Assembly: GCA_052055015.1 (NCBI GenBank)
Contig: JBQJIT010000036.1
Direction: 5' to 3' (one strand)
Length of the DNA: 45,836 bases
From: Malassezia furfur
Lineage: Eukaryota
The notes under the pieces are model-generated. The model worked only from the letters and a program-made list of their open reading frames with translations, was not told where the DNA came from and ran no database searches. A program made the translations under genes and the position numbers. Positions 8,857 through 41,263 of this stretch are shown piece by piece. How positions within the stretch are numbered: position 1 is the stretch's first letter; each line of letters begins with the position of its first letter.

Positions 8857-9926
8857 CTACGTAGCTTGCTCACCAAAGTCCTGCATCAGGCAACCCCGCG
8901 CGACTTACCGTGTGCCCCGTGCGCTGCGCATGCATCGCAATGTCTTTCTCGCCATACAGCTTCGTATGGCACGTCCGGCACTGCGTCGCGACGCTCGCCA
9001 TGTCCGTGTAACTGCATCAGCGCGTGCAACGTACTAGTGCTGCTGCTGCAGCTCGCGCACTAAGCGCTCACACGCAGCGCGCAACTCGGCCGTGGCGCTG
9101 CGGTCAAACGCCGTGACATGCTCCGGCCCGGTATCACTTTGGCGCTCCTGCTCAATCACGTCATAGTGGCTGCATCAGCTTCGCGCAACTTACATCCCTG
9201 CATACGACAGGATCCACAGCGTGGGATACGCGCCGTCCTCACCAAAGCGGTGGCACACCCCATGCTTCACGTCCCAGCACCAGATCTCCGCGCGAAAGTG
9301 TGCGGCAAACAAAGCGAGCTCAACCCCACCGCCCCATGTCTTCGGTTGCAAAAGTTTGTGCATGTACGCCTCGCGTGGTTCCCTGCATGAGCATCGCTCT
9401 ACCCACCCCAACATGGCATCCGAGTACTCCGTCGGCGCTGCCCGTAGCAAACGCACAGCCACTGGCATCAGCAAACCGGCTTTCTCCACGTACATTCCCG
9501 CATCGATTGGCTCTGCGTGTCGCTCGTATGCTGAGTCTGCACGTAGCTTAGTGCATGGAATAGGCAGCTGTTGTCGTCGGGGATCGTATGCAGGCGTAGC
9601 ACACTCCCATTCCCATACGGCACCTGGGGGCTCGATCGAGGTTGCGGCACAGGCGCCGACGACACTTCGACGGTTACTGAATCACCTGCTTGCAAATTGA
9701 GTGGTGCCTTTTGTAGCACATCCGCACTGTTTACCGCACCCTGTGCAAGCTTTCGTGGAGGCACGCCGAGCTTGACTGGGTGAGAACGCCATGACGCACT
9801 ATTTTGGTGTTCAATGGGAATCTGAGTCACAGAGGCAATGTAACTCTGCAAATCGGCCAACGTGCTCGGCGGCTCTGTCTGCATACGGAATGTATGGACG
9901 CCCTGGGGGCTCCGGATCCGCAACAT
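8857..9926 (-). CDS. OTU1: OTU1/YOD1 deubiquitinase (UBX-like, OTU, C2H2 Zn finger); 7 exons
   Basis: Removing introns 9776-9799, 9462-9493, 9383-9406, 9170-9193, 9012-9034 and 8881-8908 gives IKLGVPP, PDDNSCLFHA, YSDAMLGEPREAY, TWGGGVEL, YAGIHYD, HYYTD..CRTC..HAQRTGHTDFGE. Confidence 0.92.
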
Positions 9927-10409
9927 GGTATGTCCTTACGCAGGTGCCACGCATTACCTCCACTTTTGTGGGGCTGCTCGTGCCTTGCTTACTTGACCTG
10001 CACATCCTTTGGGCAGTGTTGCACACGTCCTCAAAGGTACATCTCTATCCAAGAATCCCTATGAATCCCTAGAGACACAACGGTACTAGGGTCTTCGCCG
10101 AAGCTACGCAGGTTCCATTTCTCCTGTGCATAGGGTGCGTCCTATTTTTATTTCATTTTTTATATTCTTTTGTTACTTTAGCGCGATGGACGTGGCTGAC
10201 CAGGTAAACCATTGGCCAGCTTTGGCGCAAACGCACAGCCGTTCTCTCAAACCCTAAGTTTGCACAAGGGGCATCCCTAGCGACACGCACGGGCTCTTCC
10301 GGCTTCGCTCAGGCTCTGGCGTTCACCTCATTGGAGTCATTTGCGCTTTTTATGCACCAATCATATATCCACGTAAGATATGGAAACGTGGCTGTTTCAA
10401 CTCGATTGG

Positions 10410-10492
10410 CAGCAAAATGAACGCAGATTGCCCGACTTGCTTGTCGAAACCCACGCCACAATCCCGTCCCGTGTGAGGCAAACCTTATAAAA
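10410..10492 (+). promoter_or_regulatory. MT-1 promoter: TATAAAA box (10486-10492) and a possible Ace1/Cup2-type copper element (ATTTTGCTG, minus strand, 10410-10418)
   Basis: TATAAAA ~55 nt before the ATG; one match to the short, degenerate HTHnnGCTG consensus, which could occur by chance. Confidence 0.4.
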
Positions 10493-10545
10493 ATGGAGTC
10501 GTACGACACCTGTCTGCGGTAACATACCCAGATTGGCTATCAATA

Positions 10546-11097
10546 ATGGTTGGTATTCAACACAATACGTCTCTTACACAACAGAGCTCTTCTGAAGTGA
10601 ACAAGTGCACCTGTACTACCCCGTGCCCGTGTGGTAGCAACTGCAAGTGTGCCCAGAAGTGCACTTGCTCGACGTGCAAGTGTTCGTCGTCCAAGGAGCA
10701 GTGCGGTGCAAACTGCAAGTGCGAGACGAACACGTGCACGGAGAAGTGTGACTGCTCGACGTGCAAGTGTTCGTCGTCCAAGGAGCAGTGCGGTGCAAAC
10801 TGCAAGTGCGAGACGAACACGTGCACGGAGAAGTGTGACTGCTCGACGTGCAAGTGTTCGTCGTCCAAGGAGCAGTGCGGTGCAAACTGCAAGTGCGAGA
10901 CGAACACGTGCACGGAGAAGTGTGACTGCTCGACGTGCAAGTGTTCGTCGTCCAAGGAGCAGTGCGGTGNNNNNNNNNNGTGCAAGTGTTCGTCGTCCAA
11001 GGAGCAGTGCGGTGCAAACTGCAAGTGCGAGACGTGCAAGTGCAGCCCGAACTGTCAATGTTCGGGCTGCACTAGCGGTAATGCCTGCAACTGCTAA
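10546..11097 (+). CDS. Long modular metallothionein MT-1 (spans a 10-N gap at 10970-10979; probable intron 10549-10584)
   Basis: Cys-rich with CxC motifs and no aromatic residues; repeated 29-aa unit CSTCKCSSSKEQCGANCKCETNTCTEKCD; GTTGGT...CTTACACAACAG after the ATG fits the local intron consensus. Confidence 0.88.
   Translation: MVGIQHNTSLTQQSSSEVNKCTCTTPCPCGSNCKCAQKCTCSTCKCSSSKEQCGANCKCETNTCTEKCDCSTCKCSSSKEQCGANCKCETNTCTEKCDCSTCKCSSSKEQCGANCKCETNTCTEKCDCSTCKCSSSKEQCGXXXXCKCSSSKEQCGANCKCETCKCSPNCQCSGCTSGNACNC
10666..11032 (+). repeat. 87-bp coding tandem repeat in MT-1
   Basis: Identical units start at 10666, 10753 and 10840; a partial unit starts at 10927 and runs into the N gap; another partial unit follows it. 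Confidence 0.95.
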
Positions 11098-11230
11098 CTT
11101 TAACCGCCTGTAGACTTCATAAACGTGCTTGATGCAAAATTAGTTACGAATAATGACCACCCTTCATGAACTCCCGTTTACGAGTTTCTTGGCGTTCGTT
11201 TTGAGAGTTGATGCTACCTAGCCAAGAAAG

Positions 11231-11466
11231 AAATAAATCTATCTCAGTTTACGACCGAAAACAGTTTCAAACCCCATCATGTTGTAATAGGATGTCTTGG
11301 TTCCATAGGAACATGCAGTCGAGTTTCCATCCGTTCCTACCCATGTGAAATAAATCTATCTCATTTTAAGACTAAAAACCGTTTCAAAATCCCCACCATG
11401 TTGTAATGGGATGTCATGGTTCCATGGGAACATACAGTCGAATTTCCGTCCGTCCCTGACCATGTG
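11231..11466. repeat. Diverged tandem direct repeat (117 bp + 119 bp) between the two MT genes
   Basis: Copy 1 (11231-11347) and copy 2 (11348-11466) both run AAATAAATCTATCTCA...CATGTTGTAAT.GGATGTC.TGGTTCCAT.GGAACAT.CAGTCGA.TTTCC.TCCGT...CCATGTG; roughly 80-85% identical by eye. Confidence 0.9.
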
Positions 11467-39502: not shown

Positions 39503-39627
39503 CGTAGCAAAAAGGCCGGCCTGTGCATCTCAAAAATTTCTTTCGCTAGCCTTTGTCAGCCTATATGGATTGATTATGTGCAAATCGTAAAAGAATTCCG
39601 GAAAGGCTCTTGCCTGTCCTAACCGAC

Positions 39628-39707
39628 ACGGCGTTAGTTAAGGGGTATAACAGTTGCCTTCCATATCCGAACAGCAACAGTGGGGGGTTCGAGTCCCTCA
39701 CGCCGTA
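39628..39707 (+). tRNA. tRNA-Gly(UCC) with a 9-nt intron (39664-39672)
   Basis: Acceptor ACGGCGT/ACGCCGT, D-stem GTTA/TAAC, anticodon stem GTTGC/GCAAC with CT-TCC-A, T-loop TTCGAGT, discriminator A. Confidence 0.92.
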
Positions 39708-39709
39708 AC

Positions 39710-39720
39710 TTTTTTTTTTT
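39710..39720 (+). terminator. Pol III oligo-T terminator
   Basis: T11 run 2 nt after the tRNA 3' end. Confidence 0.85.
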
Positions 39721-39979
39721 GTTGTGGAACCCGATGGGAAAAACTATTTGCGAAACTATCTTAGCTCAGTCGCGATTTTGTTGCGGGGAACTTTTTGTTG
39801 AGAACGTGAGCCAATCAGCGCATGACAAAGAATGGCGGGCTTTGTTTTAGATACGACATAGAGGATAGATGTTCTAACCATTGCGCCACGTGCTAAGTCA
39901 ATCTGCAATCGTAGCTGCTGTGAGGCTTCTTGGGTCGGAACCAGGTGCACCTCACCTTCTTGCGCCTAGCAGATACACC

Positions 39980-41263
39980 ATGACGGCGTCGGACCTGCTG
40001 CATCGTCAGCCACCATCTTATGGTTCGTACCCCACATTCTGACACACAGCCAAAAAACAAGATTATACGTTCCACAAGACACTCGGCAAGGGCACTTTTG
40101 GCGTGGTTCGCGCTGCCACTCGCAACGAGCCAGGCGGCCCGCGGAATGTTGCCGTCAAGGTCGTGAGCAAGCACTTGCTCAAGGGTCACGAAGAGGTGGT
40201 CATGCGCGAGATCGAGACCGTGCAGGGTCTCGACCATCCCCACATTGTCAAACTCATCGAATGGTTCGAGTCCAAAGACAAGGTTTGTTGCCTGTGCCGC
40301 TAACAAGCTCAGTTCTATCTTGTGTTCGAGGAAGCCGACGGTGGAGAACTGTTTGATCGCCTAGCGCGCGGAAAGTTTACCGAGCTGGATGCGTGCCGCA
40401 CCATCCACGTTGTCGTGGATGCTATCGCATACATGCACCGACACAACACGGTGCATCGGGACATTAAACCCGAAAACATCCTGTATCGCACGCCGGCCGA
40501 AGACGCCAACATTGTACTGGTCGATTTCGGCATCGCGGCGCACCTGCGCAACAACAGCAACCACGACCTGCACGGGCTGTGCGGCAGTGTCGGGTACGCG
40601 GCTCCTGAGGTCATTGCGCGGCAAGGGCACGGGAAGCCTGTGGACATCTGGGGTCTTGGTGTGGTGACATACGCCATGCTGTGTGGTTATGCACCCTTCT
40701 CGTCGGCGGACCCGGACCTGTTTCGCAAGCAGCTGGAGCGTGGCCAGATCGAGTTTCACGAAAAATACTGGAGTTCGGTGAGCCCCGAGGCGATTGATTT
40801 CGTCAAGCGGTGCCTTACCCTGGACCCCGAGAAACGAATCACCGCTGAAGAAGCGCTCGCGCACCCATGGTTCAAGATGGTGCTGGAACACGATGGAGAC
40901 CAAACCCAAGACATTAGTGCCGGTCTACGGGATAACTACCGGAGCAAGTGGAAGACGGCGATTGCGGCCGTGCGTGCCACGCAGAAATTCAATCAGGCCG
41001 CCGAAATTGCGCACAACCGCGACGAACCGTCGTCGCCCTTATTCTCGGACGACGAGGACCAGGCATTTACACAATCACAATACCAAGCGGACAAGGAGTC
41101 GGGCGAGGACTCTGCTGGGCATCACCCGGCGCACCACGAGCCCGAGACCGTACAGGAAGGGGGTCATATGCGGCGCAGCAGTTGGGGCTGGAATTCGCTT
41201 GTGTCGAAGTTTCATTCCATATACCATGGCGACAAGACGAATGGAACACACGCGAAAGTATAG
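39980..41263 (+). CDS. Ca2+/calmodulin-dependent protein kinase (CMK1/2-like); introns 40023-40049 and 40283-40312
   Basis: Spliced QPPSYAKKQDYTFHKTLGKGTFG, VAVK, FESKDKFYLVFE, HRDIKPEN, DFG, GSVGYAAPE, CaM-binding KWKTAIAAVRA. Confidence 0.92.

Follow-up and report, generated by a model that had tools for sequence, protein, structure and literature searches.

Very short predicted introns with the branch motif beside the acceptor in a segment of the Malassezia furfur genome

Intron lengths confined to a narrow range near 20-30 nt, with the splicing signals packed together, are characteristic of ciliates such as Paramecium and Stentor, of the nucleomorphs of chlorarachniophytes and of microsporidia. 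Here we describe a comparable set of introns in a stretch of DNA from the yeast Malassezia furfur (contig JBQJIT010000036.1); the window, by which we mean the whole stretch of 45,836 nt (about 60% G+C) that was analysed, comes from a free-living basidiomycete yeast and not from a ciliate, a reduced endosymbiont or a parasite nucleus. Short introns are well documented in the genus itself. The curated annotation of M. sympodialis ATCC 42132 lists 5350 introns, on average 30 bp long, 5271 of them (99%) supported by RNA-seq (PMC5389616, Table 2), and the legend of Figure S8 of the same paper refers to intron-size distributions on an axis of 0-100 bp. For M. restricta KCTC 27527 there are 2150 introns with a mean of 37.2 and a median of 30 (PMC9241646, Table 1), an annotation of M. 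restricta has allowed introns down to 20 and 15 (PMC6473144), and a review remarks on very short introns in the haploid Malassezia genomes (PMC7426719).

The M. furfur window has the same short-intron architecture as M. sympodialis and M. restricta; its short introns have a median length of 25 nt, and the smallest of them measures 21 nt. The original prediction, which was made from the DNA letters of this stretch, had observed that Malassezia introns are known to be short and that the novelty of the finding was therefore uncertain, a caution that is borne out by all four papers (PMC5389616, PMC9241646, PMC6473144 and PMC7426719); the size regime as such is already published for the genus and cannot be counted as new. 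We found no intron statistics for M. furfur in the literature, and a search whose coverage excluded subscription papers returned no paper on the splice signals or the spliceosome of Malassezia. The word 'branch' does not occur in the main text of PMC5389616.

The position of the branch motif beside the acceptor likewise has described parallels. In Yarrowia lipolytica, Trichomonas vaginalis and Giardia lamblia there is no pyrimidine tract and the branch site is anchored to the AG, at a distance of 2 nt in the first and 4 nt in the other two (Irimia and Roy 2008, PMC2483917), the short branch-to-3' distances of Yarrowia having since been confirmed (PMC13309789); in most fungi the tract is also absent and the branch site lies about 13-25 nt from the intron end (PMC2483917). 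The window resembles the first three organisms in having no tract and a branch motif near the AG, and its commonest form (A-Y-N-C and then AG) corresponds to a distance of 4 nt by the count used in PMC2483917. These organisms, however, have few introns, most of them longer (a mean of 269 nt in Yarrowia, PMC2483917), and their branch motifs are near-invariant, whereas the window shows a degenerate motif in seven YTNAY variants, a spacing of 5-9 nt, minimal introns and a high frequency of them, with 26 in about 20 genes. Encephalitozoon cuniculi is listed in a table of the same paper with 13 introns and with values of 32 and 35.77, which we read as the median and mean length (PMC2483917). The accessible text of PMC2483917 makes no mention of Malassezia.

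Splice signals of the short introns

The reconstruction comprises 26 introns in 11 genes, with outer ends at 8881 and 40312 (Table 1). All but one of them (25 of 26) are 21-39 nt long, with a median of 25, and 22 are no longer than 30 nt; the remaining one is 137 nt. These counts reproduce the original ones throughout. The mean G+C content of the introns is 58%. We take them to be ordinary U2-type spliceosomal introns (GT-AG, with one GC-AG) that have probably shrunk to about the smallest workable size and represent the normal gene architecture of Malassezia, an interpretation to which we assign a probability of roughly 0.93. Each intron would then consist of little beyond three adjoining signals, namely a donor hexamer, a branch motif and a YAG.

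The signals were tabulated for 25 introns, that is, for 24 short introns and the 137-nt intron, with a 36-nt candidate in a metallothionein-like gene left out. The termini are GT-AG in 24 of the 25 and GC-AG in one, and the 36-nt candidate is likewise GT-AG. All donors had been expected to read GTNNGT; this is true of 23, and the two exceptions are GTACGC (24768-24794) and the GCACGT of the GC-AG intron (35416-35441). Position by position, the donor has G1 in 25/25, T2 in 24/25, A3 in 19/25, G5 in 25/25 and T6 in 24/25, while the acceptor is CAG in 23 cases and TAG in two. All 25 contain a YTNAY motif whose A is 5-9 nt from the intron end, in the forms CTGAC (6), CTCAC (5), CTAAC (5), CTGAT (4), CTCAT (3), TTGAC (1) and CTAAT (1).

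In the 24 short introns the A of this motif is found at intron positions 16-30 (median 20), and its distance from the intron end is 5 nt in 12 introns, 6 nt in six, and 7, 8 and 9 nt in two each; the mode of 5 (12/24) together with the range of 5-9 suggests that the distance is compressed but not strictly fixed. The spacer between donor and branch motif is 6-20 nt, and between the motif and the YAG there are 1-5 nt, a layout that puts no more than 5-9 nt between the predicted branch A and the 3' splice site. A gap of 1-3 nt before the YAG, as first described, applies to 21 of the 25 introns, and in the other four it is 4-5 nt. The reported lack of a polypyrimidine tract holds: the branch motif is directly against the acceptor, and no space is left for a tract between them.

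Matches to a strict pattern of this kind (GTNNGT-N6-22-CTNAY-N0-5-YAG, at most 40 nt) number 23 in the window, as compared with 4.2 +/- 2.2 and a maximum of 11 in 200 dinucleotide-preserving shuffles. The 23 matches represent 22 distinct introns and one nested alternative donor, and the 22 introns are all on the sense strand of gene models, with none antisense and none intergenic. As a control we used 1272 GT..AG segments of 21-39 nt within 11 long open reading frames (ORFs) that are free of introns: a YTNAY whose A is 5-9 nt from the end occurs in 45 of these (3.5%) and G5T6 in 63 (5%), and both signals together occur in none. Four introns fall outside the strict motif (the 21-nt intron of ISC1, the intron with the GTACGC donor, the GC-AG intron and the 137-nt intron), and they have the same branch motif at 5-7 nt.

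Table 1. Reconstructed introns and other features of the window, in order of position (a slash marks an exon join; P numbers are protein handles)
Feature	Coordinates	Strand	Length (nt)	Observations
OTU1 intron 6	8881..8908	-	28	spliced C-terminus RTGHT/DFGEQAT identical to P0002
OTU1 intron 5	9012..9034	-	23	excision restores C-terminal zinc finger; exact acceptor uncertain
OTU1 intron 4	9170..9193	-	24	colinear with P0001 and P0002; internal stop
OTU1 intron 3	9383..9406	-	24	in frame, stop-free; missing from P0002, kept in P0001
OTU1 intron 2	9462..9493	-	32	colinear with P0001 and P0002; internal stop on read-through
OTU1 intron 1	9776..9799	-	24	in frame, stop-free; colinear with P0001 and P0002
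Metallothionein-like Cys-rich gene, candidate intron	10549..10584	+	36	directly after ATG; splice signals only
Two Cys-rich, metallothionein-like genes	10549-11110; ~11800-12300	+		perfect or near-perfect tandem repeats
ISC1 (sphingomyelin phosphodiesterase) intron 4	12438..12465	-	28	spliced tail matches P0009, P0018, P0022 and P0024
ISC1 intron 3	13238..13262	-	25	gapless in model and in 7/8 spanning homologs
ISC1 intron 2	13450..13474	-	25	gapless homolog join; Pfam Exo_endo_phos coordinates continue across
ISC1 intron 1	13652..13672	-	21	branch motif TTGAC; join LNC/WGLKY; internal stop
ALG9-like (GT22) mannosyltransferase intron	13894..13916	+	23	restores frame from upstream ATG exon; exon 2 starts at Pfam position 26
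CtIP/Sae2 intron 2	17535..17558	-	24	in frame, stop-free; P0210 (100% identical) and P0212 contiguous at PPDY/WQLGFP
CtIP/Sae2 intron 1	17690..17712	-	23 (in model)	frame logic and signals
PDCD2/Tsr4 intron	23582..23718	-	137	frame logic and signals
Box C/D snoRNA-like element in PDCD2 intron	~23607-23706	-		C-like box, D box, terminal duplex
GRX5 intron 1	24398..24421	+	24	in presequence; internal stop; links ATG exon to main ORF
GRX5 intron 2	24768..24794	+	27	donor GTACGC; in frame, stop-free; structure alignment
GOS1 (Golgi SNARE) intron	31464..31488	+	25	Pfam V-SNARE_C 2-21 closes exon 1, 23-66 opens exon 2
CRM1/exportin-1 intron 2	31749..31775	-	27	between last sense codon and TGA; full splice signals
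CRM1 intron 1	34992..35030	-	39	after MASME; ORF without upstream ATG
PHO81 intron 1	35312..35340	+	29	right after ATGAAG; spliced N-terminus MKFGKQIL as in 6/8 orthologs
PHO81 intron 2	35416..35441	+	26	GC-AG, donor GCACGT; join YKFLKK/IINSLEK contiguous in 6/8 orthologs
PHO81 intron 3	35944..35969	+	26	gapless in 8/8 orthologs
PHO81 intron 4	38544..38568	+	25	gapless in 7/8 orthologs; P0098 has ~10 extra residues
tRNA-Trp (CCA) gene	39628-39707	+		between YBL028C-like and kinase genes
Protein kinase intron 1	40023..40049	+	27	internal stop; supplies only ATG; L003 contiguous
Protein kinase intron 2	40283..40312	+	30	Pfam Pkinase 1-71 closes exon 2, 73-263 opens exon 3

Intron joins in homologs and related loci

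For 21 of the 26 introns the join is supported by homologs that are colinear with the model, by solved structures, by Pfam coordinates or by the DNA of related loci. The spliced OTU1 model has 304 residues and includes a UBX-like domain, the Cys and His boxes and a C-terminal zinc finger (Pfam PF24560, E 3e-07), although a Pfam search at the exon level gave no support for the OTU domain; the model matches P0002 at five joins, and reading through intron 3 would insert 8 residues relative to the human OTU1 chains 4bos, 4boz and 4boq. The ISC1 model is colinear with nine homologs, three of which are from outside the genus (Rhodotorula, Sparassis and Kalmanozyma), and has zero gaps at its four joins. 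The first of these joins is gapless in the eight homologs that span it, the ninth (P0003) starting downstream and covering only the last join; P0024 (M. cuniculi) lacks about 12 residues just past join 3, and intron 4 is left in by the gene calls P0003 and P0015.

Similar comparisons apply to genes further to the right. If GRX5 is left unspliced its translation carries, exactly at intron 2, 9 residues that are absent from yeast Grx5 (3gx8) and human GLRX5 (2wul and 2mmz), and the conserved M of MHQSGEL is rebuilt only by splicing this intron. Exon 2 of CRM1 starts at about residue 3 of yeast Xpo1 (exon residue 2 aligns to Xpo1 residue 4). The PHO81 N-terminus MK/FGKQILSQQISGWGSYYLDYKFLKK/IINSLEK, which spans the first two joins, is common to 6 of 8 orthologs, and P0090 and P0094 are without the residues upstream of the second join.

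A scan of metagenome contigs with a PHO81 alignment yielded 28 loci, of which four (L001-L004) were compared with the window at the DNA level; the comparison covers the part of the window to the right of GRX5. All four loci keep the gene order ZNF-GOS1-CRM1-PHO81-YBL028C-kinase-CCT. L001 and L002 have their query matches at identical coordinates and look like one species. L003 (58% G+C) is uninterrupted at six joins (GOS1, PHO81 2-4 and kinase 1-2), with sequence that fits the predicted joins, and it keeps only the PHO81 intron after ATGAAG (27 nt) and the CRM1 intron after MASME (32 nt). In L001 (60% G+C) there are eight introns of 23-39 nt, six at window positions, and L004 (53% G+C) has introns of 34-95 nt at window positions (6 + 2 sequences), in which the likeliest branch A is 10-25 nt from the end.

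At the GOS1 site L003 is contiguous while L001 has an intron of 27 nt and L004 one of 95 nt; at the third PHO81 join, again contiguous in L003, the corresponding lengths are 25 and 53 nt, and at the second kinase join they are 25 and 68 nt. The intron after ATGAAG of PHO81 is 28 nt in L001 and 34 nt in L004, and the first CRM1 intron, at the same place in L001, is 39 nt there. The counterparts of the 26-nt GC-AG intron of PHO81 are 31 nt with the donor GTATGC (L001) and 48 nt with the donor GTGCGT (L004), and L003 has contiguous DNA. At the fourth PHO81 join, L001, L003 and L004 are all contiguous.

Conserved positions occupied by unrelated sequences of differing length, and precise absence in one relative, form the pattern expected of real introns. 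They bear directly on the proposal that the segments are not introns at all, and are instead assembly errors, pseudogene frameshifts or targets of a non-spliceosomal removal of the HAC1/IRE1 or tRNA type. Small size is the only feature of the segments that speaks for this proposal, along with the two runs of N (10970-10979 and 12070-12169) that mark assembly gaps in the window. The donor, branch and acceptor signals are uniform and confined to the sense strand, eleven of the segments have lengths divisible by three and hence cause no frameshift, and three other assemblies have introns at the same positions that differ in length and sequence, so that we give this proposal almost no credence and continue to regard the segments as U2-type introns.

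The relatives also contain introns for which the window has no equivalent, near residue 136 of GOS1, residue 277 of the kinase and residue 155 of PHO81, and in L004 the CCT gene contains one of 50 nt. Such introns suggest a fast turnover of intron positions within the group. A further instance is at the end of CRM1, where in L001, L003 and L004 alike the TGA comes immediately after ...EEDEEL and the window has 27 extra nt at exactly this place; the intron before the stop codon could reflect either a gain in the window lineage or a loss in the relatives.

In Paramecium, introns with lengths divisible by three are reportedly depleted. The window differs in this respect, although the sample is small: 11 of the 24 short introns have such lengths, of which seven contain an in-frame stop and four, starting at 9776, 9383, 17535 and 24768, are stop-free. 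It might be supposed that some of these four are retained as coding sequence or as alternative isoforms instead of being removed constitutively, as is the case for 9383-9406 in P0001, and the absence of a depletion fits with this. Retention would nonetheless add residues that the homologs lack (8 relative to the human OTU1 structures and 9 relative to the Grx5 structures), P0210 and P0212 are contiguous at the CtIP site, and all four segments carry full splice signals; we therefore regard this reading as improbable, and favor constitutive removal.

There are nonetheless several observations that count against our interpretation or qualify it for particular introns. The four in-frame, stop-free introns keep the reading frame open if they are retained, so that partial retention is possible. 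Five of the 26 introns (those of the ALG9-like gene and of PDCD2, the first introns of CtIP and GRX5, and the 36-nt candidate) are proposed from frame logic and signals alone, and the 36-nt candidate is in frame and stop-free, such that both the spliced and the unspliced reading are possible. At the first CtIP intron, P0210 joins ...EHRSQ to YYALVG, which corresponds to a 179-nt intron with the donor GTGCGT and the same acceptor as our provisional 23-nt intron. P0002 is 6 residues shorter than the OTU1 model after intron 5, yet continues beyond it. Finally, the branch A is a predicted one, assigned by its motif.

Gene models and other features of the window

The original prediction warned that gene finders would mis-annotate genes of this type, and faulty public models of OTU1 and PHO81 show the warning to be well founded. 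P0001, an OTU1 protein labelled M. furfur (8857-9926, minus strand; 100% identical to window exon 2), translates the 24-nt intron 3 and breaks off at the intron 5 donor, with the result that the zinc finger is missing. The first two exons, with their 26-27 residues, are missing from the PHO81 models of M. brasiliensis and M. vespertilionis, and that of Malassezia sp. CBS 17886 has about 10 extra residues at join 4. The CtIP model P0210 (17475-18300, minus strand), although 100% identical to window exons, differs from ours in skipping 52 codons; our model keeps a CACC...YYA segment, which may resemble the CxxC motif of the CtIP family. Pfam searches of the separate exons gave no support for a CtIP N-terminal domain. 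The label M. furfur is attached to public proteins that are 100% identical to window exons, and the top match for PHO81 (93%) is labelled M. brasiliensis.

Several modelling approaches and candidate introns were set aside. Joining long ORFs over any GT..AG does not discriminate in GC-rich DNA, a codon-bias frame map was excessively noisy, and a small dynamic-programming gene finder merged adjacent genes and made up long introns. Among the rejected candidates, the 41-nt segment 17434-17474 is preceded immediately by the stop reached both by CtIP and by the public P0210, excision of 21091-21113 would disrupt the continuous ORF of the MTHFR_C domain, and 25394-25415 and 35634-35668 are antisense to the bZIP and PHO81 genes respectively. 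Two intron-like segments with full signals, one of 21 nt just 5' of the PDCD2 ATG (24050-24070, minus strand) and one of 25 nt just 5' of the Cdc6 ATG (17365-17389, minus strand), are possible introns of 5' untranslated regions.

The gene content was established by a Pfam scan of 226 stop-to-stop ORFs of at least 75 residues between 8.7 and 40.5 kb. The genes identified are SPT23/MGA2, OTU1, an Exo_endo_phos protein (ISC1), an ALG9-like GT22 mannosyltransferase, Cdc6/ORC1, a PLD-like protein, MTHFR, PDCD2, a monothiol glutaredoxin, a bZIP protein (a weak match), a WDR26-like WD40 protein, a C2H2 zinc-finger protein, CRM1, an SPX-ankyrin-GDPD protein (PHO81), a YBL028C-like protein and a protein kinase; gene modelling added a GOS1-type SNARE, a CtIP/Sae2 homolog and two Cys-rich repeat genes.

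The 137-nt intron of PDCD2 had been proposed to host a small nucleolar RNA (snoRNA). It contains a C-like box AGGATGA (23694-23688), with one mismatch to RTGATGA, and a D box CTGA at 23622-23619, and the flanks pair as an 11-bp terminal duplex of -18.1 kcal/mol. The boxes and the duplex make a box C/D snoRNA plausible, but the element matches no Rfam family at E up to 1. Small nuclear RNAs were likewise absent from the Rfam matches.

The two Cys-rich genes are built of tandem repeats, with an 87-nt unit present in 3.5 copies of 100% identity in the first (10666-10969) and an 84-nt unit in 2.2 copies in the second (11886-12069). Both arrays stop at a run of N, and the copy number is therefore probably under-assembled. 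A stretch of about 50% GC between the two genes includes a 119-nt tandem repeat (11230-11467; 2 copies, 85% matches).

Intron compaction and the splicing machinery

From the arrangement of the signals we infer that the introns are spliced and that the A of YTNAY is used as the branch point. The lariat loop would then be just 16-30 nt, and the branch point would lie beside the acceptor because space is lacking. A pyrimidine tract would be unable to contribute to the choice of the 3' site, which may instead be the first usable YAG at least 5 nt past the branch A, with nearer or weaker AGs (AAG and GAG) being skipped. In kinase intron 2, for example, an AAG 4 nt past the predicted branch A is skipped and the CAG at 9 nt is used, the AAG being one that would break the frame, and in the first PHO81 intron of L001 and L003 AGs at 3 and 5 nt past it are skipped.

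How such introns are recognized can be addressed in two ways. One reading, which we hold to be rather less likely than not, is that the M. furfur lineage has a standard-looking spliceosome that operates at a geometric floor, the lariat loop being as short as 16 nt and the 3' site only 5 nt past the branch A. Compaction would be recent and graded within the genus, L004 having introns of 34-95 nt and L001 of 23-39 nt and L003 having lost most of them, and would be accompanied by a turnover of introns that includes the one before the CRM1 stop codon.

The second possibility is that the machinery itself has changed, early recognition factors (U2AF and its interplay with SF1, U1-U2 bridging, or the anchoring contacts of SF3) having been lost or remodelled in a way that permits 16-21 nt between donor and branch A. 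This would fit the extreme geometry, with a branch A at positions 16-30 and 5-9 nt from the end, and the lack of a pyrimidine tract, and the difference in compaction among close relatives (34-95 nt in L004, with the branch A at 10-25 nt) would imply that something lineage-specific has changed. Most fungi are without a pyrimidine tract anyway, however, and the 137-nt intron of the window has the same signals as the short ones. Yarrowia, Giardia and Trichomonas splice with a branch 2-4 nt from the AG (PMC2483917), and a standard spliceosome may thus tolerate the geometry. Any remodelling of the splicing machinery is, we believe, doubtful, and we keep to the explanation of ordinary U2-type introns of about the smallest workable size.

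What the window appears to add to the published picture of the genus is modest, and comprises the graded intron sizes at identical positions, the likely turnover of introns including that before the CRM1 stop codon, a predicted GC-AG intron of 26 nt, and the errors in gene models. The last of these have a practical side, in that tiny introns defeat default gene finders and read mappers, and the faulty OTU1 and PHO81 models point to systematic errors in the proteomes of skin yeasts wherever RNA-based curation is missing. If it is true that the spliceosome here works at a geometric floor, Malassezia would be a culturable and transformable fungal model for the recognition of minimal introns, a use that we have not found described in any paper. 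The introns would stand at the lower bound of size for a single substrate on which U1, U2 and the catalytic core are all able to act, and the size differences among close relatives would provide a natural comparison.

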